The position numbers and the translations under genes were made by a program. From an uncultured bacterium (lineage in GTDB: Bacteria > CSSED10-310 > CAZUFC01), in assembly GCA_964619725.1 (NCBI GenBank), contig CAZUFC010000198.1:1-11344 (forward strand): a stretch of 11,344 nucleotides of DNA, in the 5' to 3' direction. Numbering within the stretch: position 1 is the first letter of the stretch; the number at the start of each line of letters is the position of its first letter. A model generated the notes under the pieces. The model was not told the origin of the DNA. It did not search any database and worked only from the letters and a program-made list of their open reading frames with translations. Of the stretch, positions 103 to 10,303 are shown one piece after another.

Positions 103-484
103 GAAAGCGCTTAAGAACCCCGCAACATGCAGCGGCAAAATAAAGGCAAATAAAATGCCGAATATATGCACACCCGACGGACGGCCTTTCAAATAAGCCA
201 ATAAGACCAAAAGCAAAATCAAAACGACCTTACCTCAATCCAGCGCCGACTTCGATGCGCTTAACGGCCCTTGCCGGAAAAACCTATAACGGCAGTCCGG
301 TGCATAACAATACGATGCCATGCCTCGAAAGCCTGGGGGAAGCATATGAGAAAAGTAACCATAGTTTGGATAAAAGAAAAAGACACGACGTGCTTATCGG
401 ATTATACGCAGCTATTAAAAATAAGACGGTGAAGCATGCATACGATTCGATTCAGAAAACTTCACTTGTTATTAAAAAACTATA

Positions 485-535
485 TAGCGCCTGTCCATAA
501 ACTCGAATCTCGATTCAAAATTTAATGCTGGACAG
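485..535 (+). repeat. ~50 bp mini element with an IS-end-like terminus, copy 1
   Basis: TAGCGCCTGTCCATAAACTC (485-504) is the exact reverse complement of 9995-10014. Similarity continues through AAATTTAATG..GGACAG. There is an internal inverted repeat CTGTCCA...TGGACAG. Confidence 0.65.
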
Positions 536-543
536 TTACTTGG

Positions 544-686
544 GTTTTTGATCCATAAAGGAGCGAATTTTTCTCAAGGCAAGGAAGGCAAGGATTTACG
601 AAGAAGGCGTATTTATTATACGTTGACTGAGCAAATCCGAAGCCTGACGCAGCATTAGGGAAAATTCGCCGTTTATGAACAAAAAC
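544..686. mobile_element. MITE-like palindromic element
   Basis: Imperfect ~33 bp terminal inverted repeats: GTTTTTGATCCATAAAGGAGCGAATTTTTCTCAA versus revcomp GTTTTTGTTCATAAACGGCGAATTTTCCCTAA. They enclose nested stems GGATTT/AAATCC and GGCGTA/TACGTT. No coding capacity. A related fragment lies at 10376-10398. Confidence 0.65.
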
Positions 687-798
687 TAACCAGCAACGAT
701 GGAAAGATAAATCGTCAGACGGCAACGAGATGAATTATGGTTTTCCGGTGTAAGACCCTAAAAATATTGGGACTGATCGGACTGGGGTTACACTCCTT

Positions 799-916
799 TC
801 AAAGCTTTTTACAGTTTTTTACAGTAATCGGGATCGGGCTCGCAATCGCAATCGAAACAAAATGATGAGATATTATTCGAATTGTAACCTCAAAAAAGCT
901 TTTTTGACCAATGCCA
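799..916 (+). repeat. ~100-120 bp dispersed repeat 'R', copy 1
   Basis: CAGTAATCGGGATCGG..CGCAATCGCAATCGAAACAAAATGATG.GATATTATT.CGAATTGTAACCTCAAAA...TTTTTGACCA recurs at 1946-2070 (direct) and 8723-8824 (inverted). Confidence 0.9.
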
Positions 917-920
917 GAAT

Positions 921-1122
921 ATTCCACCCATCCAATCATCCAAACCTCCAACCCAACAATCTCACACTCTTCCAACCACCATTTCTCCCATCCAGTCAAC
1001 CACCAGATCGTCCAGTATTCCAACCGCCCAATCTGCCCCTCTTCCAACCAATCAGTCCTCCAACCACCCACTCTTCCACTCTTCCATCCAATCTTCCAAT
1101 CTCCCCCCAATCTTCCCTCCCC
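921..1122. repeat. Degenerate 8-bp tandem array (consensus ~TCCAATCT/TCCACTCT), roughly 25 units
   Basis: TCCA recurs at about 8 bp spacing. Only 7 G in ~202 nt on the + strand. Confidence 0.85.
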
Positions 1123-1242
1123 AAAACCAAGAATGAAATATTTCCAGATTTTTGAATCTATGATAATAAATAAGACTGCACCGGAGAAAATTCTGCCTCT
1201 CCGGTCATTGAGCGATAAAACACAAAGTTAAGGCAAGGAACC

Positions 1243-1869
1243 ATGAACGGAGCGGAAAAAAACGAAAAACATGATAGAGCCGGCGTTGAAAGAACGTCGG
1301 TTGCTTCTTACGCGCTGATCAGCCGGGATAAGCGCGATAATTCCGGCGGTTCGACCAGGGAGTGGCTTCTGCAGTGGAACTCGAAATGGAAAGCCATGAA
1401 CCTTATTGCGGGTCATCAGGAGGAGATGGATTCAAACGAACTGGCCTGCATCATAAGGGAAGTCCATGAAGAACTTTTCGATGACCTGTCGGAGGATGAA
1501 CGAGCGAAAATGAACAGAGCGGTTAGCGGCGACAATCGGAAATATAAACGGAAAATTTCGCATTGGGAGGACCCGTACATAGAAGAAGTCACGCTGATTA
1601 CCGGTGATCCCATAGAATATGTCGCCTTTTCCAAATCGAAGAACTGCCTGACGAAGTATCGTTTCCATGTTTATGATGTTAAACTCAGGAAAGACAAAAA
1701 GACAGCTCTATGTAACAAAGGTCAGGGCAAAAAAACTCTCAATGAATGGGCAAACCGGCAGGAGATTGCAAACGGCAGGACGGCCGTCGGCACGGCCATC
1801 AGCGATACGGTCAGAAAAATCATGGATATTCTAAAACTGCAGCAGGACGACAAAATTCAAAACTCCTGA
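1243..1869 (+). CDS. Nudix-fold hydrolase, 208 aa
   Basis: Nudix-box-like GHQEEMDSNELACIIREVHEEL preceded by WLLQWNSKWKAMNLI. RBS-like AAGGA lies just before the ATG. Substrate cannot be determined from sequence. Confidence 0.8.
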   Translation: MNGAEKNEKHDRAGVERTSVASYALISRDKRDNSGGSTREWLLQWNSKWKAMNLIAGHQEEMDSNELACIIREVHEELFDDLSEDERAKMNRAVSGDNRKYKRKISHWEDPYIEEVTLITGDPIEYVAFSKSKNCLTKYRFHVYDVKLRKDKKTALCNKGQGKKTLNEWANRQEIANGRTAVGTAISDTVRKIMDILKLQQDDKIQNS

Positions 1870-1945
1870 CAAAGACAACCTAACCTATTGAAATAATATG
1901 TTTTTTTGCACTGAGTCTCGGCATAAAAATTGAGCAGCTTTTTCG

Positions 1946-2070
1946 TCAAACATTTTACATTTTGTTTCAGTAATCGGGATCGGTGTCGGGGTCGCAATCG
2001 CAATCGAAACAAAATGATGGGATATTATTTCGAATTGTAACCTCAAAAGACGCATTTTTGACCAGCGCCA
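1946..2070 (+). repeat. Dispersed repeat 'R', copy 2
   Basis: Direct repeat of 799-916 with one extra hexamer unit. 55/63 identical (hand count) to the reverse complement of copy 3 over the CGCAATCGA...TTTTTGA core. Confidence 0.9.
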
Positions 2071-2181
2071 CATTTTTATATTTATCTATGCTTGATAGAA
2101 CCGACTTAATTCATTGTATTCGTTTCGATTTTTTGGTTGCGCATCCAGTGTGTTCCAGGGTTCTTAAATTCATACCTCCTA

Positions 2182-2218
2182 CCCAGGGTTGCGCTCGCAA
2201 GCTCGCTTAAACCCTGGG
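2182..2218. repeat. REP-like hairpin of a second family
   Basis: CCCAGGGTT-GCGCTCGCAAGCTCGCTTA-AACCCTGGG has a perfect 9 bp outer stem. Single copy in the window. Confidence 0.5.
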
Positions 2219-2248
2219 CTATGCTGTGGGCCCCCTACGTGATCAAGC

Positions 2249-2371
2249 TTATTGTGTCAAGCGTGTCTAATAGTCATACCAGCAAACAGGAGCGATACTC
2301 TTATGTCGGTGCAAGCCGCGTGGGGCGAAGCATGGATATAAGCGTATCGGGGTTTGTTTTTTTTCAGCCTG
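2249..2371 (+). repeat. Dispersed structured repeat 'S', left copy
   Basis: 2300-2361 aligns ungapped to the reverse complement of 8577-8638 at 49/62 identity (hand count). Weaker similarity extends to ~2249/8689. Hairpin CTTATGTC...GATATAAG. Confidence 0.85.
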
Positions 2372-2429
2372 GCGTCCAGTATCTATGGTCTTTGTGCGAT
2401 CTTCAATGATCATTAAGCATCATTAAACA

Positions 2430-2468
2430 GACAAAAACTGACTAACGGTTCACTCCATTCCGTCAGTC
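2430..2468 (-). terminator. Probable intrinsic terminator of the PFK-like gene
   Basis: Minus strand GACTGACGG-N11-CCGTTAGTC (9 bp stem, one G-U) followed by AGTTTTTGT, ~20 nt after the stop at 2488. Confidence 0.55.
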
Positions 2469-2487
2469 CCGAAACTCATATCATAAC

Positions 2488-3921
2488 CTACCCGGGGTTT
2501 ACCCAGGTCATCGTCGGCCTGTCGTTTCTGATGCCGATGAAGGGTATCTCGTCGGGATGCGCTTTCTCAGCCCAATCCCAGTCCATGGTGCAAAGGGTCT
2601 CCACGGCATGGCATCCCAGGCGGCTTGCCAGGATGATGTCTTCGGGAACGGGCATTCCCCCTCGCTGGGCATGACCCAGGTCCATGACGCGGATGTCGAG
2701 CTTGATTGATTTTCGTTGGGGGGCGAGGCTGTTCCATAATTTTCTTGTCTTGCTTTTTGGTTTATACTTTTTTCCCAATTTTTTATGTAAATGCGTCAAA
2801 GCGGTTTTAAGGCATTCGATAGGCGGTTTTTTCCAATCTTTCAAGTTTTTAGGAAATTCAACGCCCTCCGCCACAGCAACCACTGCGCTGCCGAAAGGAT
2901 TGGTTTCAATTTCTTTATAGATAAGCTTCAACAATCGCAGGATTTTGTAATAGTTCCAGGGTTCCCTGCTGCGTTCTGCCGTAAGGACAAGCCTGCAGTT
3001 ACCCGCAATGCTTGCGAATATCGGGAGGTCGCCCCGTTTTCGTCCCATGAGCTGAACCAGGAAAAGCCGTGCGGTGGCTGCACCGGTCGAACGAACCGCA
3101 TTAAGCATTATGTCGGCCATGCTTAGCGCGGAAGCGAATCCAATGGAACGATCCGACCAGGGATGAGTATCATTATCGATCGTGCCGGGCAGAGCGACCA
3201 CCGGCATTCTTATTGTTTGCCAAAGCTCTCTCGCTCCTCTAGCCGTACCGTCGCCGCCGATGACGATTAGACCTTGTTTGGAATTTTTGTTGATCTTACC
3301 GGCATTCGCATTAAGCTCATCCTTAAACTTCGGATATCGCATAGACCGCAGTATAGAACCAGCCTCCCCGGCAATATCGCAGACTCGATCCCTCGTCAGT
3401 TTTTCAGGCATTTCTCTTTTTAGCAACCAATCCATTAATCCGATATATCCGTCCTTGATCCCGTAAATAGCAGGATTCCAAATTTTTCCCTTTCCCGTGA
3501 ACCCATAATTTAATGCCGTCATGGTTACGGAGCGAATGGCTGCGTTCATTCCCGGAGCATCGCCGCCGCTTGTCAACACACCTATCTCGTTTATCCCGTT
3601 ATAGTTCTGCCGGAGCCATTCGTCCGTATTGCACGAACAGAATTCCATAAGCTCGCCGGCGTCGTTCGATATGCCGGTTTTTATCCCATAATGATTTATG
3701 AGCTGATGCAAATAATCATCATCCGGTATGTTCATGAGATGAGCAGGCTTAAAGTCTTCCCTAACCGTCGGAAACTCACCGTCCGGCAATACGGGCGGTA
3801 CTGTCGTCATGTCAATTACATAATCATCCTGAAATTCCCGCCTGGCAATCAGTTTCTGTAAACGATACATCTCAGCCTGTAAAACCCCCTTCTGCAGCAG
3901 TTGCTCGTTCGTAAACCCCAT
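2488..3921 (-). CDS. 6-phosphofructokinase (PfkA family, ATP-type signature) with N-terminal extension, 477 aa
   Basis: Motifs GVLTSGGDAPGMNAAIR, IGGDGT, PGTIDND, LMGR, VAEG and LGHAQRGG are all present in order. Gly in GGDG and in PGTIDND is the ATP-type rather than PPi-type signature. RBS AGGAGG precedes the ATG. The gene symbol is withheld because it is divergent and probably not the housekeeping copy. Confidence 0.92.
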   Translation of the reverse strand: MGFTNEQLLQKGVLQAEMYRLQKLIARREFQDDYVIDMTTVPPVLPDGEFPTVREDFKPAHLMNIPDDDYLHQLINHYGIKTGISNDAGELMEFCSCNTDEWLRQNYNGINEIGVLTSGGDAPGMNAAIRSVTMTALNYGFTGKGKIWNPAIYGIKDGYIGLMDWLLKREMPEKLTRDRVCDIAGEAGSILRSMRYPKFKDELNANAGKINKNSKQGLIVIGGDGTARGARELWQTIRMPVVALPGTIDNDTHPWSDRSIGFASALSMADIMLNAVRSTGAATARLFLVQLMGRKRGDLPIFASIAGNCRLVLTAERSREPWNYYKILRLLKLIYKEIETNPFGSAVVAVAEGVEFPKNLKDWKKPPIECLKTALTHLHKKLGKKYKPKSKTRKLWNSLAPQRKSIKLDIRVMDLGHAQRGGMPVPEDIILASRLGCHAVETLCTMDWDWAEKAHPDEIPFIGIRNDRPTMTWVNPG

Positions 3922-4067: not shown

Positions 4068-4187
4068 GAAGACAGGTCGCGCTTTGAACCTGCATTATGC
4101 CTTTTAAAGCCCGGAACGGATATTGGCGCCGAATAAACGATTCATATTGTTCTCCTGTCGTCAGTATGGAATGATCAGGCCCGAAAC

Positions 4188-4499
4188 TTCCGAATCCGGT
4201 TCCGAAAAGCGCCGTATATTTCCGCAAAGTTCCGCAAAATTCCGTTTCAGCATGCCCAAACCGGTCAAATCAGCCACCTAAACCTGCAAAAAGGTTCCGA
4301 ACGCTTCCGCAAAGTTCCCGAAATTTCCCCAAATTTCCGTTTCCCATTTCCGCAAAACGCGACAAATGCCGCAAAGTTCCGCATATTTCCGCTTTTGCGG
4401 AACAGGTTCCGCAAATTTTTCGATTTTTTTGCCCCAAACCATGTACGAGCCTCCCAATTTTTATTCCGAATAATTCCGCATTGTTCCGTTTAAACGGAA
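4188..4499. repeat. Degenerate 10-bp-period array (consensus ~TTCCGCAAAN)
   Basis: 15 TTCCG on +: 4188, 4200, 4220, 4230, 4240, 4295, 4305, 4335, 4348, 4377, 4387, 4407, 4464, 4474, 4484, plus in-phase variants. Ends in the perfect palindrome TTCCGTTTAAACGGAA (4484-4499). Confidence 0.85.
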
Positions 4500-4520
4500 T
4501 AAAACTCTAAACCCAATTCC

Positions 4521-4660
4521 CTAAGAAGGGCGGCGGACGACACGGAACCCGTCGCCCCTGCTCCAGGCCCCGTCAGCCGGACCGCCCCCTTCGCGACAGC
4601 CCGAGCGGCAGTCCACCGCCCCGTTGCCCCAGCAGCAGCCGAGCAAAACGCGATCGGAGC
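4521..4660 (-). other. Candidate DGR variable region (VR) at the 3' end of the FGE domain
   Basis: Coding strand 4524-4660 has 10 A in 137 nt (7%) and 73% GC, versus 35 A in 120 nt (29%) at 4681-4800. It sits at the usual VR position (RV..G..W...CRS..R....P...GFR). A hairpin follows 22 nt after the stop. Confidence 0.55.
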
Positions 4661-5423
4661 CGCTTTCAGGACCTTTTGGATCATCTACAGGCGAATTTCC
4701 GTAATAATCCGAATCAAACCGATCCCAGCACCATTCCCAGAGGTTTCCGTGCATGTCGTAAAGTTTCCAATCGTTTGGACGAAAACTTTTAACTGTTGTG
4801 GTTCGGTTTCTGTATTCTCCCATTTTGCCTTTGCCGTATGGAATTCTCCCTTCAAAATTGGCCATAGTCGAATCCAGGCTGTTGCCGTAATGAAAGTGAG
4901 TCGTGGTTCCCGCCCGGCACGCGTATTCCCATTCCGCTTCCGTGGGCAGCCTGTATCCGTCGGCCAACTGGTCACAATATACTTCGCCTTCTCCTCCTTC
5001 GTATAGGATTCTGAATTCAGGATCGGAGTAATAGCATGGTCGGAGATTTTTCTCACGTAAGGTCAACTTGTTGCAGAACTCCGCGCATTTGAACCAATTG
5101 AAATTTTCGAGGGGCAGGTCGTCCCCTTGGAAATGACTCGGATTGTCGCCCATGACATCCTTCCACATCTTTTGCGTAACCGGCGTCTGGAGCATCAGGA
5201 ACGACCTCGTCATACTCACCCGGTGCGGCGGTTCTTCACGATCAAATTCATAACCGCCCATGAGGAAACTTCCCGGGGGAATAACGACCCAGCCTTCGGG
5301 TACCGCGCCGTGCCTTGTTGCGTAAGTCTCCTTATATATTTCCTGAAGCCGCCTGACGGCATCGGTTTTTTTATTGAATTTTTCGTCGAATAACGCCTTA
5401 CCGCGCTGTTTCTCTCCATCAGT
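4521..5423 (-). CDS. FGE-sulfatase (SUMF1/CLec-fold) domain; probably the out-of-frame C-terminus of the upstream NACHT protein
   Basis: Motifs TPVTQ, YRLPTEAEWEYACRAGT, PNDWKLYDMHGNLWEWCWD and GFRVV. The frame is open from 5423, and the listed ATG at 5261 lies inside the conserved N-terminal motif WVVIPPGSFLMG, so it is unlikely to be a real start. Confidence 0.9.
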   Translation of the reverse strand, partial: TDGEKQRGKALFDEKFNKKTDAVRRLQEIYKETYATRHGAVPEGWVVIPPGSFLMGGYEFDREEPPHRVSMTRSFLMLQTPVTQKMWKDVMGDNPSHFQGDDLPLENFNWFKCAEFCNKLTLREKNLRPCYYSDPEFRILYEGGEGEVYCDQLADGYRLPTEAEWEYACRAGTTTHFHYGNSLDSTMANFEGRIPYGKGKMGEYRNRTTTVKSFRPNDWKLYDMHGNLWEWCWDRFDSDYYGNSPVDDPKGPESGSDRVLLGCCWGNGAVDCRSGCREGGGPADGAWSRGDGFRVVRRPS

Positions 5424-8341
5424 TCATCTCTTATCATTAAAGCCGCCCGCAGCAGGTTCGGATCGCCCTGGTTTTTATCTTCGATTATATTATGCAGGTT
5501 GTCTGATATTGTTTCCGCTTTTGAATTTCCTTCTTTTATCTCTTTTGCCGTGATTTCGGCCGCGAAAATTGCTGTATCTTTTGAGATATGGACTTTTTTC
5601 GCCTTTTCTGTTTTATTCTCTTTCAGGTCTGCGGCCAGGCGCTTTCCTACGAAGTATTCCCAGAAGGAACGGTGCATGAAATAAAAATTTGAATCCGGAT
5701 CGCATGTCATGTAGGCGCATCGCCGGATGTCGCTAGGATACTCTTGCTGAGCCCTGGACGTCTGAATATCCCCATGAGCTTCTACAATTTCAGGGAATTC
5801 TCTATAATTGACTTTTGCATCAGGATTGTTCTGTATAATGAAGGCGACTCCTTCAATAATCGCCAGTATCTCTTTCCGCGTGGTCAATAAAGTGCCGTAT
5901 TTTTCATCTCTTTCCAGCCATCTATCCGTAATCCATTTGTACAATGATCCAGGATCATCCACTTCTATGCTTTCATCGGTTATTTGTATTATGCCGCCTG
6001 ATTTGTCGATTTCATTGCATATCAAATCTATCAGGACCGGTCTTCGCGCCAGGTCGGCCAGGTCGTATGAACCGTGTATTATATTTCTGGCGCCGCTCAA
6101 CTTTTTTCTGTCCTGGAACCTTTTTTCCAGGTATTCCGCCACATCCTTTTCATCGAATCCCGTGAGGACCATAATATTTGACGGTTCTTCCCTCATCATG
6201 GCCGGAGCGTTTTCTATCCCTAAATTTTTGCAGGTTCTGTCGAATTCCGCCAGTCCTTTGAAATCATGAGTTCGGCTTGTCAGCATAAAATTTACATGAG
6301 TTTTCACAGATTCTCTTATCCAGTCGCCCCTGGCGCTTTTTTCCAGCATAGCGCCCGTCAGCTCGTCGAATCCGTCGAATATCAGCAGTATCGGGACCAG
6401 TTCCTTCAACAAGTCCCAGAATCCCGGCAATTCAAACCAGTCTATGCCCTTCAGTTTCAATGTCCTGGCTATGCAGACCTCGCAAGTTTTGAACCATCCA
6501 TCCCTCTCTGAATAGCCTAATCCTCGCGGACTAAAAGGAATCAGCAGCGGCAGGGGGACGTTTTCACCATCTAGGAACCGCTCCGCCAAATTTTTCGCCA
6601 GGAATTTGCATAAAAGGGTTTTACCAGTTCCATATTCGCCCAGGATGAAGATTCTGTTGGTACCGGGATTCGTTTTTATTTCATCGATCCATCGGCCGGT
6701 CAGGTAATCTTTGATGTTCCGCCGCATTTCAGCTATTTCCTTGTTGCTTTTTGTGATCTTTTCTTTATCGCAATAGCGGTATTTTCTTTCCTTTTCCCGT
6801 TCCTTTTTCTTTTCCTCTTCAAATTTTTCAATCCGCTGCCAGTCGTCCCAACCCTTGCAGCAAAACGGATCGATGTAGTATTTTTCTTTGACCGGAGGCA
6901 GCTTATTGAAATCAACGATCAACGATCGCAGGTAACCGTCCCAGCGTCCGAATCTCCGGCTTGCGTGTTCGGCTTCCTGGACGACATCATCAGGCAGCGG
7001 CTTCGGGTTATTCTGGCCGGCTACGGCAGCGATGATGCGAGCGACAGCATAATAGCGCGGCGATTTATCAGGGAAGTGCAATGCAGCAAGCGCACTGAAG
7101 TATAAGGACATACGGTATTCTTCGGGTATTTCGCATGGTTCCATCCTGGGATTCAAATGAGGTTCCAGGCGACCCAGAGCGCTCAAACGGAAGGCTGCTA
7201 TGACCTGGGTCAACCTTGCCGACGGATCATCCGGAGAAACCCCTTCTTCAATATCTTTCACAACTTCATCCGGCGCCCGGATGCTCAGCGCTCTAAACAC
7301 ATTATACAAATCTACCAGGTTCACCTTTCCGATGAACCGGTTTTCGGATAACGCCAGCGCTGCTGTCTGCACTTCCAGGTTTGCAAAATCCGCCGACAGG
7401 GGCAGTTCTCTTTCCGGCAGCTTCCAGTCTATGATAAGCGGTTTATCGCCGGCGATGAGCACGTTCATGGGTTGCAGGTCGTTGTGAGTCCTGTTTACTG
7501 TTTTTGCTTTAGTAACGGATTTACTTTCAAGATGATCGTCCAGAACTTCGTCAGGATTTTTAGTTTTTTCCCTCAGCCATTTGCATAAACGGGGATTCTC
7601 CATGAAAACGCCCCGGTCAGCCAATTGGAGGTTGTTCCTGAACCAGGCTCTTCTATCTCTTTTTTCCTGTTCGTCCTCACCTTCGAAACAGTAACGGAAC
7701 GCTTCTCCTATGCGATAATGCATCTGTTCTTTCCGTTCGCATTGAGAATATATCGCATGGTTCAGGATGGAATATGTCGCACTGATTGTTTTTCTGAATC
7801 GGTACCCGTTTATTCCGCCAGAAGACTCCAGAAACGCCGTGACGTATTCTTTCAAATTGTAATTATTCATTACGGACCCGGCAAAATCGATCTCGATTTC
7901 GTCCGCATACGCCTGGAGAAATGATGAATATCCGTTGTATTCGGGAGGTTCTACGTCAGGCAATTTCATTTTAACAATGTAGGGATTATCGCAATCTCTC
8001 AGAAACTGTCCGTTTTCATGGATTTTTTTTATTTTTGCAGTTTTGTCGACTTTTAATATTCGGGACCTGCCGGCATCAGCTTGCTTGACGTACAGCAGAA
8101 GCACGTGCGCCTCCGTGAACCCTCCGCCAAGCCTGGCGACGATCCTTACCCTGCATTCATCCGCACGGGACTTTGCCTGACCGACGACTTTATGCGGACT
8201 GTTCGTTCTGTCTTTTTGAATAATGTCGGCCTGTTCACCCGGCTGTATCCATTCTGATTTTTCAGCCCAGAACTCTATGTGTTTCTTCAGGGATGGCGGT
8301 TTGTTTGAATTAATGATTTTGATCTCGTCTATAATTTTCAT
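5216..8341 (-). CDS. Kinase/phosphotransferase (APH-like) domain + charged linker + NACHT NTPase, 1041 aa
   Basis: Kinase motifs: LGGGFTEAHV (Gly loop), RILKVD, HNDLQPMNVL (7463-7486), LIIDW, DFANLE. NACHT motifs: GEYGTGKT (6617-6640), LLIFDGFDE, MLTSRT, RRPVL, FMHRSFWEYF. RBS GAGGA precedes the ATG. Confidence 0.9.
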   Translation of the reverse strand: MKIIDEIKIINSNKPPSLKKHIEFWAEKSEWIQPGEQADIIQKDRTNSPHKVVGQAKSRADECRVRIVARLGGGFTEAHVLLLYVKQADAGRSRILKVDKTAKIKKIHENGQFLRDCDNPYIVKMKLPDVEPPEYNGYSSFLQAYADEIEIDFAGSVMNNYNLKEYVTAFLESSGGINGYRFRKTISATYSILNHAIYSQCERKEQMHYRIGEAFRYCFEGEDEQEKRDRRAWFRNNLQLADRGVFMENPRLCKWLREKTKNPDEVLDDHLESKSVTKAKTVNRTHNDLQPMNVLIAGDKPLIIDWKLPERELPLSADFANLEVQTAALALSENRFIGKVNLVDLYNVFRALSIRAPDEVVKDIEEGVSPDDPSARLTQVIAAFRLSALGRLEPHLNPRMEPCEIPEEYRMSLYFSALAALHFPDKSPRYYAVARIIAAVAGQNNPKPLPDDVVQEAEHASRRFGRWDGYLRSLIVDFNKLPPVKEKYYIDPFCCKGWDDWQRIEKFEEEKKKEREKERKYRYCDKEKITKSNKEIAEMRRNIKDYLTGRWIDEIKTNPGTNRIFILGEYGTGKTLLCKFLAKNLAERFLDGENVPLPLLIPFSPRGLGYSERDGWFKTCEVCIARTLKLKGIDWFELPGFWDLLKELVPILLIFDGFDELTGAMLEKSARGDWIRESVKTHVNFMLTSRTHDFKGLAEFDRTCKNLGIENAPAMMREEPSNIMVLTGFDEKDVAEYLEKRFQDRKKLSGARNIIHGSYDLADLARRPVLIDLICNEIDKSGGIIQITDESIEVDDPGSLYKWITDRWLERDEKYGTLLTTRKEILAIIEGVAFIIQNNPDAKVNYREFPEIVEAHGDIQTSRAQQEYPSDIRRCAYMTCDPDSNFYFMHRSFWEYFVGKRLAADLKENKTEKAKKVHISKDTAIFAAEITAKEIKEGNSKAETISDNLHNIIEDKNQGDPNLLRAALMIRDELMERNSAVRRYSTKNSIKKPMPSGGFRKYIRRLTQQGTARYPKAGSLFPREVSSWAVMNLIVKNRRTG

Positions 8342-8402
8342 GGCGTATCCTCGTCAGTTATGATCTATTTCTTCTTTGCAGGCGGTTGCTTTTTCTCAGG
8401 GG

Positions 8403-8431
8403 ATTCTAGCATATGCGCCTTCTATCGGCAA
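8403..8431 (-). promoter_or_regulatory. Sigma70-type promoter with extended -10 for the kinase-NACHT gene
   Basis: Minus strand TTGCCG (8431-8426)-N17-TAGAAT (8408-8403), preceded by TGC (TGn motif). Confidence 0.65.
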
Positions 8432-8565
8432 GTCGGCTTACTGAAGTATTCGTTTTCATTTATGATACCGTCTGAATCGGTCATTGATTAAAATTGCATT
8501 TTGAAAGGTTCCAATTTTTGCAGTCTCGACGATATATGGGATGTCTGAGATATGATAAAAACAAA

Positions 8566-8830: not shown

Positions 8831-9166
8831 GCAACTTAAGCAAAGGTAAATCCTTAACGATCCCGGCAGTTTCAATACCCTTGAAAGCGCCGCCGATCGG
8901 GTGTTTGTTTTGAAAAAGTGTAGGAGAAAAACAGAATGTAGAAGCGGCATCCTGCCGCTTTCCGAAAAACGTTCGATATCAGTGAGCTCTACGATATATA
9001 CCCCAAACCGGAAAAAAACCCGACCGGGTCATTCAGAATCGTCCGGCAGCAACTTAAGAAAAGGTAAATCCTTTACGACACAGGCAGCTTCAATACCCCT
9101 GAAAGCGCCGCAGGTCGTGTGGCTTTTATTTACAGAAGCGGGAACGCGGCAGGATGCCGCGTCTAC
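8831..9166. repeat. Left REP module of the RAYT locus
   Basis: GTAG REPs at 8938-8961 (+) and 9141-9166 (-). 63 bp direct repeat at 8831-8893 and 9049-9111 (56/63 identical). Confidence 0.85.
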
Positions 9167-9211
9167 ATTCTATCTTTCTTGCTGCGCTCCTTTATTTAAT
9201 TAAACTCGTTA

Positions 9212-9240
9212 TTGACTCACCCGGTTTCTGTTCATATACT
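9212..9240 (+). promoter_or_regulatory. Sigma70-type promoter for RAYT
   Basis: TTGACT (9212-9217)-N17-TATACT (9235-9240), followed by a leader hairpin GATGCCTTTTG/CAAAAAGCATC (9259-9286). Confidence 0.65.
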
Positions 9241-9315
9241 ATTAAGCTATTAGTGTTTGATGCCTTTTGTTTGTTCAAAAAGCATCCTGACTGAATTACA
9301 AAATCGGAAAAAGTC

Positions 9316-9951
9316 ATGAAAAAAGACGATATAATGCCTTTTGATTCCTCTCGTTTTGATGAGCACGAAATCAGCTTTTTTGATCCTGAAACCGTTATTG
9401 AAAATATGTCGGGTAATTTACCTCATTGGCGACAGCAAAATGTTATTTATTTTGTTACGTTCAGAACGGCTTATTCTTTACCGCAACATAAGATGGAACA
9501 ATGGAAAAAAGAGAAAAAGCTTTGGCTTGAATTCCATCCTCCACCTCACAGCATTGAAGTTAAACGAGAATTTTATGAGCGTTTTCCGGCACGAATGCAT
9601 AAATGGTTAGATGCCGGGCACGGCGAATGCCTTCTTGCAAAACCAGTCTGTAAAAACATCGTTGAGAACGCTATGCGTTATTTTGATGGAGAACGTTATA
9701 ATTTGGATGTTTTCGTTATTATGCCGAATCATGTTCATGTTCTCGTTAAGCCTGTCAAAGACAACAAACTATCGGAAATCTTACATTCATGGAAATCTTT
9801 TACGGGTAATAAAATCAACGAACTGGAAGGAAAGACGGGTTCTTTCCGGCAGAAGGAATCCTTCGATCATATTGTGCGCGATGAATATCAGCTTGAGAGA
9901 TTCAGACAATATATAAGAGACAATCCAAAGATGATCAAACGTAAATTTTAA
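9316..9951 (+). CDS. REP-associated tyrosine transposase (RAYT / TnpA-REP, Y1 HUH family), 211 aa
   Basis: NLPHW, YFVTF, VIMPNHVH (HUH), WKSFT, QKESFDHIVR and YIRDNP (catalytic Tyr). Flanked on both sides by GTAG REPs. The start could alternatively be the ATG at 9334. Confidence 0.92.
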   Translation: MKKDDIMPFDSSRFDEHEISFFDPETVIENMSGNLPHWRQQNVIYFVTFRTAYSLPQHKMEQWKKEKKLWLEFHPPPHSIEVKREFYERFPARMHKWLDAGHGECLLAKPVCKNIVENAMRYFDGERYNLDVFVIMPNHVHVLVKPVKDNKLSEILHSWKSFTGNKINELEGKTGSFRQKESFDHIVRDEYQLERFRQYIRDNPKMIKRKF

Positions 9952-9962
9952 TTATGGACACT

Positions 9963-10014
9963 GCCTGTCCGTCATTAAATTTCGACTGTTGAATGAGTTT
10001 ATGGACAGGCGCTA
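9963..10014 (-). repeat. ~50 bp mini element, copy 2 (inverted relative to 485-535)
   Basis: GCCTGTCC...GAGTTTATGGACAGGCGCTA; 20/20 match to the reverse complement of 485-504. Confidence 0.65.
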
Positions 10015-10071
10015 GATACAGTTCCGGCAAAAAGACTGAAAAAGCGCTTACTGGGGCGTTCCATTTCGTTT

Positions 10072-10303
10072 AACCTTTTCGTAAGTCGTCGATTCTGAAC
10101 GACTCTGTCGGTTTTTTACCGGATTGGGTTGTTGGTCTTAGAGCTCACTGATATTGAAAGCTTTTCGGAAAGCGGCAGGATGCCGCTTCTACTTTCTATT
10201 TTTCTTCTACGGCTTTTCAATCCAAACATCGATGCTTTTTCTTCGATCTTAGACGCGGCATCCTGCCGCGTTCCGGCGGCGCTTTCATTGGGGTTGAATT
10301 GCC
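10072..10303. repeat. Right REP module of the RAYT locus
   Basis: REPs at 10169-10192 (-) and 10249-10274 (+, with TTAG foot). The block is an inverted copy of ~8864-9068; 10139-10192 versus 8938-8991 is 51/54 identical. Confidence 0.85.

Follow-up and report, generated by a model that had tools for sequence, protein, structure and literature searches.

In the DGRs of Bordetella phage BPP-1 (Mtd) and Treponema (TvpA), adenine-specific mutagenesis acts on the C-terminal part of a CLec/FGE-type fold. The VR of these systems has a GC-rich 3' end, often with a hairpin downstream, and both are cis cassettes with a known template repeat (TR), an IMH and a GC-rich hairpin. NACHT/STAND sensors diversified by DGRs have, to our knowledge, been described mainly in a few cyanobacteria and gammaproteobacteria; they are the closest thing that bacteria have to a somatically diversified receptor. 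Passages of Doré et al. (2024; PMC10907252) describe such targets, NACHT/STAND-CLec "antigen sensors", in multicellular bacteria (Thiohalocapsa PB-PSB1). According to these passages, several DGRs can coexist in a genome, diversification in trans occurs for part of the targets, and certain loci are either incomplete or interrupted by mobile elements; a perfect TR match in the reference genome is lacking for some VRs, and VRs lacking a genomic TR match were still diverse owing to intact variants in the population. Passages of Kaur et al. (2020; PMC7159879) associate FGS (FGE-sulfatase) effector/sensor domains and DGRs with NTP-dependent conflict systems; there, the FGS domain invariably sits on the C-terminal side of other signalling domains, NACHT being among its partners, and the TR is placed "in the same neighbourhood or elsewhere in the genome".

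The window, by which we mean the whole stretch of DNA that was analysed, is the complete contig C198 (11,344 nt) of a 9.17-Mb assembly in 344 contigs that is 90.9% complete with 6.5% contamination; the smallest contig of the bin measures at least 1.6 kb. The host phylum is small, with 14 genomes available in the collection searched. Three public runs (X1 to X3) contain the locus, all from one microbial-mat study and all in the form of low-depth contigs. The minus strand of the window codes for a NACHT protein and an FGE domain (Table 1), and the neighbours of this gene are a phosphofructokinase gene and a REP-associated transposase. The NACHT domain (PF05729) is matched at residues 563-744 of its ORF (E 8.5e-10, 39.1 bits against a cut-off of 26.7), and the translation contains GEYGTGKT and LLIFDGFDE, which we take to be the Walker A and Walker B motifs; the domain and both motifs that we looked for in a NACHT NTPase are thus in place. 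The TCAD9 match (residues 261-325; E 9.4e-11, 41.9 bits against a cut-off of 40) is partial and marginal. The name of this Pfam family points to ternary conflict systems; "TCAD9" does not occur in the main text of Kaur et al. (PMC7159879), and no MoxR ATPase, vWA or VMAP/iSTAND partner was found among the ORFs of the 11.3-kb contig. The FGE frame, which ends in a TAG stop at 4523-4521, matches PF03781 from position 4 to 255 of 255 (E 4.7e-41) and so encodes a complete FGE domain; NCBIfam gave only sub-threshold matches for this domain, to FGE-fold enzymes such as PvdO, GldK and EgtB.

Table 1. Coordinates of features in the window (C198) and of the intact DGR cassettes of the same genome
Feature	Contig	Position (nt)	Strand	Basis or remark
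ORF of 1041 aa: N-terminal region with partial TCAD9 match, then NACHT (STAND) NTPase	C198	5216..8341	-	Pfam
FGE-sulfatase (C-type-lectin-fold) frame, 300 codons + stop	C198	4521..5423	-	PF03781, ORF list, translation
A7 run, A_AAA_AAA in the NACHT frame	C198	5366..5372	-	Sequence and both frames
Adenine-depleted, GC-rich, VR-like segment (GSDRVLLGCCW ... GFRVVRRPS, stop)	C198	4521..4665 (upper limit approximate)	-	Composition, RGGxW-aligned A profile
15-motif TTCCG array, 10-nt-phased blocks, unit about TTCCGCAAAN	C198	4188-4499	+	Motif count, TRF
Perfect 16-nt palindrome TTCCGTTTAAACGGAA	C198	4484-4499		21 nt beyond the FGE stop; unique in the genome
Y1/IS200-like ORF	C198	9316-9951	+	Best match REP-associated tyrosine transposase, below cut-off
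DGR	C26	TR 32438-32574; VRs 30955-31091, 33770-33906		Mismatches at TR adenines 18/18, 19/19
DGR	C9	TR 105606-105733; VR 106999-107126		87% of 15 mismatches at adenines
DGR	C280	TR 363-491; VRs on C280, C25, C324		90%, 95%, 85% of 20-21 mismatches at adenines

As encoded, effector/adaptor, NTPase and sensor are not parts of one polypeptide. The NACHT and FGE frames overlap at 5216-5423, with the FGE frame in -1 relative to that of the NTPase, and a single tripartite protein would require slippage at the A7 run, where a -1 shift links ...NSIKK to TDAVRRLQ...GWVVIPPGSF. This run is the sole long homopolymer that we noticed on reading the overlap; past it, about 50 residues at the C-terminus of the 1041-aa ORF are out of frame. 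Since the first ATG, GTG or TTG of the FGE frame, at 5261, falls within the FGE domain, an intact sensor could be made only as a fusion. The A7 run shows neither differences nor gaps in the Logan contigs of two runs, which argues that the population itself carries the frameshift in its DNA and that the assembler did not introduce it. The tract could be phase-variable, could serve as a programmed frameshift site, or could reflect a recent inactivating mutation.

The most conspicuous property of the gene lies in the final 46 or so codons of the FGE domain, i.e. at the C-terminal end of the fold. The preliminary description had reported an abrupt switch to 7% A and 73% GC at this place, and our counts bear it out: the coding strand of 4521-4660 (140 nt) comprises 11 A, 27 T, 60 G and 42 C, or 7.9% A and 72.9% GC, as compared with 31.7% A, 21.2% T and 47.0% GC in the remaining gene (4661-8341). 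The translation of the segment, ...GSDRVLLGCCWGNGAVDCRSGCREGGGPADGAWSRGDGFRVVRRPS followed by the stop, likewise reads as claimed; the 3' end of the VR is GTCGTCCGCCGCCC. The binomial probability of finding 11 or fewer adenines in 4521-4660 is 1.1e-11, and stretches of 140 nt taken from the gene, its last 250 nt excluded, never hold fewer than 25 adenines (median 44). As the AT skew turns from positive to negative in the tail, the depletion is specific to adenines of the coding strand and goes beyond a mere high GC content. Genome-wide, 12 or fewer adenines per 140 nt are found in 0.1% of 18.25 million positions of such a stretch, which merge into 272 regions, many of them unrelated to FGE and some N-masked or of low complexity; the composition by itself is rare but not diagnostic.

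The genome that surrounds this segment contains three or more intact DGRs along with several decayed ones, and some dozen of its FGE tails are VR-like. Within 4 kb on either side of each of its 13 RVT_1 matches we looked for repeats in which a single base accounts for the mismatches, and recovered three intact cassettes (Table 1); the genome also has at least two broken ones. IGNLTSQ, the hallmark motif of DGR reverse transcriptases (RTs), is present in the intact RTs of C280, C9 and C26, and fragments of the IGNLTSQ type lie on C27 and C226, and C207 also has an RT fragment. The cassette of C280 is arranged in the order target, HRDC-like ORF, Avd-like ORF, RT and TR, and Avd-like and HRDC-like ORFs also adjoin the RT on C226. 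A single TR, that of C280, matches VRs on three different contigs. Confirmed targets have the architectures DUF4062-NACHT-FGE (twice), DUF4062-FGE and STAND-like-FGE; the NACHT-FGE arrangement is therefore one that intact DGRs of the same genome diversify. By contig, the DGR regions are located at 29-37 kb of C26, at 103.5-109 kb of C9, at 72-74.1 kb of C25, and on C280 and C324. A Metallophos-NACHT-FGE tail on C9 (103750-104418) gives a weak second match to the TR of that contig (86/110).

FGE was matched 33 times in the genome, and 29 tails were examined after two TRs themselves and two fragments had been dropped. Adenine makes up 12% or less of the last 135 nt in nine of the 29: six with a proven TR, a seventh (C226) with a DGR cassette, and those of C198 and C168. 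When the adenine profiles are aligned on RGGxW, the C198 tail matches all six confirmed VRs, the drop starting about 15 nt (one bin) ahead of the motif and leaving 0-2 adenines per 15-nt bin thereafter; three comparison tails, with ordinary adenine content and without a TR, have 1-8 per bin. The motif itself reads LGCCW in C198, RGG having become LGC. The R and the second G, here L and C, are conserved in 25 of the 26 other FGE domains of the genome, and over 36 conserved FGE columns the C198 domain deviates mildly at three outside the VR and radically at two inside it. Two confirmed VRs likewise have a Cys directly ahead of W/F (RGGCF), so that part of LGCCW can be taken as ordinary DGR output.

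Not all DGRs of this genome are whole. At 6427-8551, C226 carries a decayed cassette, in which an FGE target with an A-poor VR (8.1% A) is accompanied by HRDC-like and Avd-like ORFs and by an RT that ends at 235 aa, just past IGNLTSQ, where genome-wide repeat elements come next; the TR is nowhere in the assembly. The truncated RT and the A-poor VR without a TR tell us that decayed DGRs with surviving VRs exist here. A tandem pair on C155 (TIR-NACHT-FGE and NACHT-FGE, 431-3832 and 5398-8103) is 100% identical over some 500 nt upstream in FGE and 77-90% identical in the VR, with the VR differences at codon positions 1-2; some 100 nt further upstream the pair varies in a second patch. The TR of this pair is absent from the assembly, and the divergence of its VRs in such a situation implies that at least one recently active template is missing from the bin. 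The FGE tails of C153:3829-6570, C168:637-1044 and C141:13908-16112 (A 12-16%, 75-85% alike) have a common 3' flank, TAATTACCCTTTATACTTTTACCCTTTTAC..., resembling that of C280-type VRs; their partner domains are TIG and collagen repeats, and no TR for them was found in the assembly. Finally, a NACHT-FGE tail on C8 (48920-49029, 21.5% A) is template-like (RGGSYWNDADN..RNRNRN..NRNDNNGFR) and agrees at 80 of 110 positions with a stand-alone stretch near the start of C29 (about 487-600). Same-genome tblastn with TR and VR peptides likewise returned C29:~487-594 as a TR-like stretch similar to the C8 tail. The C8/C29 stretch may represent either an additional, fourth TR or a VR that has not been diversified.

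For the C198 VR, a non-coding near-copy elsewhere in the genome had been anticipated, and it did not materialize. BLAST of 4500-4720 against the own genome returned the query and chance matches of 15-38 nt only. Ungapped scans of the 344 contigs on both strands, which forgave a mismatch where the subject has an A (scan lengths 145, 140, 110, 100, 90, 70, 60 and 36 nt), also returned nothing but the query, and the 36-nt scan for TR pieces at contig ends gave 0 matches. All six positive controls found their own TR by this procedure, with 15/17, 17/18, 17/17, 13/15, 17/17 and 18/18 mismatches at TR adenines. A cognate TR is thus lacking in the assembly, which is 91% complete and does not speak for the organism as a whole. 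The best non-self match of the C198 VR is the C280 TR, with 63 of 90 positions matching or A and 16 of 43 mismatches at TR adenines over the 90 nt; we rejected it as template, regarding it as homologous and non-cognate. None of the three known TRs qualifies in any case, the distance from W to GFR being 26 residues in C198 and 23-25 in the TRs (hand counts on VR and TR sequences) and the 3' ends being unrelated. Nor does the 3' flank of the C198 VR have anything in common with the flanks of confirmed VRs. No stand-alone TR-like piece for the C198 VR came out of tblastn with TR and VR peptides (five valid queries, TR_C26 and VR_C226 excluded), and none of the DGR RT or Avd genes of the genome is linked to this VR. 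The preliminary description had named the absence of TR and RT from the genome as grounds for abandoning a DGR reading; RTs turned out to be present, whereas the cognate TR was not found.

Relatives of the gene are scarce in the material searched. The best foreign match of the FGE domain among 41 genomes has 51% identity, the NACHT ORF has no match at E <= 1e-10 in the 14 genomes of the phylum, and a search of 5.8 billion proteins yielded the protein itself and one other at 27% identity. No orthologue for comparison was found, the closest genomes searched belonging to the same phylum only. A 20-mer from the 3' end of the VR, used to scan a metagenome collection in which records of this genome or of near relatives may be missing, gave 10 loci, one of them an FGE tail, and the overlap with the C198 VR never exceeds about 26 nt in these loci. 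The FGE tail in question (L031, 2280-2425; 11% A) ends in GFRVVRRP and a stop, has 26 nt in common with the 3' end of the C198 VR and may be the VR of another organism. Two scans of viral contigs with VR seeds produced 0 matches and 1 unrelated match. The contigs of the three runs (about 7x, 3x and less than 3x at the locus; contig-only data with rare variants dropped) list no variant in 4521-4660; 4580-4900 is uncovered in X2 and 4100-4700 in X3, gaps that are uninformative at 2-5x depth. A contig from a second sample agrees fully with the 59 nt at the 3' end of the VR. No second contig resembles the C198 VR at 85% or more in these runs, a weak hint only against the presence of a TR in them, because TR and VR are 84-88% identical in this genome.

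Downstream of the FGE stop the preliminary description had noticed a palindrome and, placing it 22 nt past the stop, took 4481-4660 as one feature. The palindrome exists at a distance of 21 nt, but the span lumps the A-poor coding segment (4521 to about 4665) together with the palindrome. We do not count the latter as evidence for a DGR: TTCCGTTTAAACGGAA is the sole inverted repeat behind the VR, is AT-rich and loop-less, and is better explained as the last unit of a local TTCCG array, which includes a second inverted unit, TTCCGCTTTTGCGGAA, at 4387-4402. The array separates the FGE stop from the upstream region of the phosphofructokinase gene, with 15 copies of TTCCG as against 0.67 expected per 300 nt per strand, and is resolved by TRF into blocks of period 10. 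The genome has no other non-coding cluster of this type; downstream of 27 FGE genes, CGGAA occurs 13 times at C198 and 0-3 times at the other 26. The array may serve for protein binding, or it may be a stretch of curved DNA. Among the six confirmed VRs a clear GC-rich hairpin follows two, both on C26, and the remaining four have other flanks, so that a downstream hairpin is not diagnostic in this genome.

The window holds further repeats. Inverted repeats of 119 nt (8902-9020 and 10110-10228, 84%) flank the Y1/IS200-like ORF, as do REP-like hairpins with the core GCGGCAGGATGCCGC, the element as a whole covering 8902-10228; this core is present in 6 copies in the window and in 77 copies on 53 contigs of the genome. 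Direct repeats of low complexity, degenerate in sequence and with many CCAACC/CCAATC motifs (families D1 and D4), occupy 918-1130 and sit within overlapping ORFs on both strands (911-1231 on the plus strand, 799-1110 on the minus strand). Rfam detected no RNA family in the window, and the sole PADLOC match was a weak one to a PtuA-like P-loop.

How might the A-poor tail have arisen? The composition, the position, the domain context and the FGE-tail DGRs of the same genome speak for the DGR target that the preliminary description had seen in it; the missing TR match in the assembly does not. In such a scheme, an error-prone reverse transcriptase would have copied a template repeat, misreading its adenines, and the cDNA would then have replaced the last ~140 nt of the FGE domain, at the cost of coding-strand adenines. 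We infer this copying from the adenine scar. The host gene is a TCAD9-like/NACHT STAND NTPase with a C-terminal FGE sensor, and we class its tail, an orphan in the assembly, as a candidate that behaves like a DGR target. Given that no cognate TR or RT is found in the assembly, that a -1 frameshift splits the gene and that RGG has become LGC, we tentatively read the segment as an orphaned VR, most likely the relic of a decayed or lost DGR and not a currently diversified target (probability about 0.45). The failure of BLAST and of every adenine-tolerant scan to reveal a TR fits this reading, as do the decayed DGR with its surviving VR on C226, the RT fragments on C27 and C207, the recurrence of the frameshift in contigs from two samples and the R to L and G to C changes at conserved columns. 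On the other side, DGR loci of this genome lie on short contigs (2.5-11 kb) and the bin is incomplete with a floor of 1.6 kb, so that the TR could simply be missing; moreover, the FGE domain is well kept outside the VR, both long frames are otherwise intact, unlike those of an old pseudogene, and the adenine content is as low as in live VRs, with no sign of re-equilibration. These last points would equally suit a live remote target, which we consider a genuine, if doubtful, possibility: a DGR would go on rewriting the VR in trans, its TR and RT having escaped assembly or binning with the missing ~9% of the genome or being carried by a structural variant within the population, and NACHT and FGE would be fused through slippage at A7. 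Precedents are at hand in the C280 TR with its VRs on three contigs, in the C155 pair, whose divergence is confined to the VR and whose TR is missing, and in the C153/C168/C141 set with its common 3' flank, likewise without a TR; passages of Doré et al. (PMC10907252) report both trans-diversified targets and diverse VRs without a genomic TR match. Against continued activity stand the TR missing in every scan, a 3' flank unlike those of confirmed VRs, a W-to-GFR length that differs from the known TRs, the altered RGG scaffold, the frameshift and, weakly, the 59 nt that are identical in the second sample. A NACHT receptor diversified in trans, as originally envisaged, is thus conceivable and undemonstrated, with NACHT and FGE in separate frames, and a relic is at least as likely, by our estimate slightly more so. 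It is tempting to go further and imagine a live, trans-diversified NLR-like sensor in which FGE is joined to NACHT only by -1 slippage of ribosome or RNA polymerase at A_AAA_AAA, or by a phase switch in run length, and in which the TTCCG array and its two inverted units act as a cis element, either in target recognition by an unassembled DGR or for a DNA-binding regulator of the locus; we regard this extended scenario as a long shot.

The orphaned-relic reading must also be set against explanations that dispense with a retroelement at this site. Ordinary mutation, selection or recombination with a GC-rich homologue might have produced a local GC-rich patch encoding Gly, Cys and Arg. The other 272 A-poor regions of the genome, so often unrelated to FGE, would agree with this, and so would the failure to find a TR and the small share of mismatches at C280 TR adenines. 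Yet the onset of the depletion coincides with the domain position at which it begins in the six proven VRs, adenine is depleted and thymine is not, and seven of the nine FGE tails with 12% A or less have a proven TR or a DGR cassette; in addition, no paralogue or metagenome sequence was found that could have acted as donor. We therefore consider an origin outside DGR copying improbable. Least of all do we credit a mis-join of the assembly, in which the FGE body and the A-poor tail with the DNA downstream would belong to separate genes or strains and have been fused at a conserved motif. This notion draws on the Logan contigs of run X1, which break at 4632-4660, the start of the A-poor segment, with an overlap of 29 nt; a real VR boundary, however, would likewise give a branch in the graph. 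Word depths in X1 are alike on both sides (7.4 versus 7.1-8.35), the reading frame and the PF03781 alignment continue across the junction, inverted pairs of genome-specific repeats flank it (1979-2061/8731-8813 and 2249-2365/8573-8689), and the REP-like core of this genome recurs in the window.

The findings illustrate that an adenine-depletion scar can flag DGR targets by sequence alone. Adenine scars outlive their retroelement, and for this reason calls of "orphan VRs" in fragmented MAGs cannot separate live targets from relics unless reads or closed genomes are at hand. The value of C198 in this respect is modest: it adds one candidate target, from a large microbial-mat genome of a sparsely sampled phylum.

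The closest counterparts of the C198 VR are those served by the intact DGRs on C26, C9 and C280, which it resembles in being an FGE tail and in adenine profile, GC content and position; their targets, too, include NACHT proteins. It differs from them in its W-to-GFR length and its unrelated 3' flank, and in that they have a TR with adenine-specific mismatches and adjacent Avd and RT genes, which it lacks. In contrast to the GC-rich hairpin of the BPP-1 Mtd and TvpA cassettes, the palindrome of C198 is AT-rich, has no loop and forms part of a repeat array. The locus is also unlike the MoxR-vWA ternary systems outlined in passages of Kaur et al. (PMC7159879), there being no MoxR, vWA or VMAP gene within the 11.3-kb contig. 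Measured against the Thiohalocapsa PB-PSB1 targets as they are described in passages of Doré et al. (PMC10907252), the C198 candidate is without a TR match or observed population diversity, the gene is split by a frameshift, its N-terminal region is TCAD9-like and its host belongs to a sparsely sampled phylum. What it shares with them, in the same passages, is a STAND NTPase followed by a C-terminal CLec/FGE domain with the VR at the very end, and a genome in which several DGRs coexist with a VR that has no TR match (PMC10907252). Judged by its sequence, the C198 locus is a further candidate member of the known class of DGR-diversified NACHT-FGE proteins.
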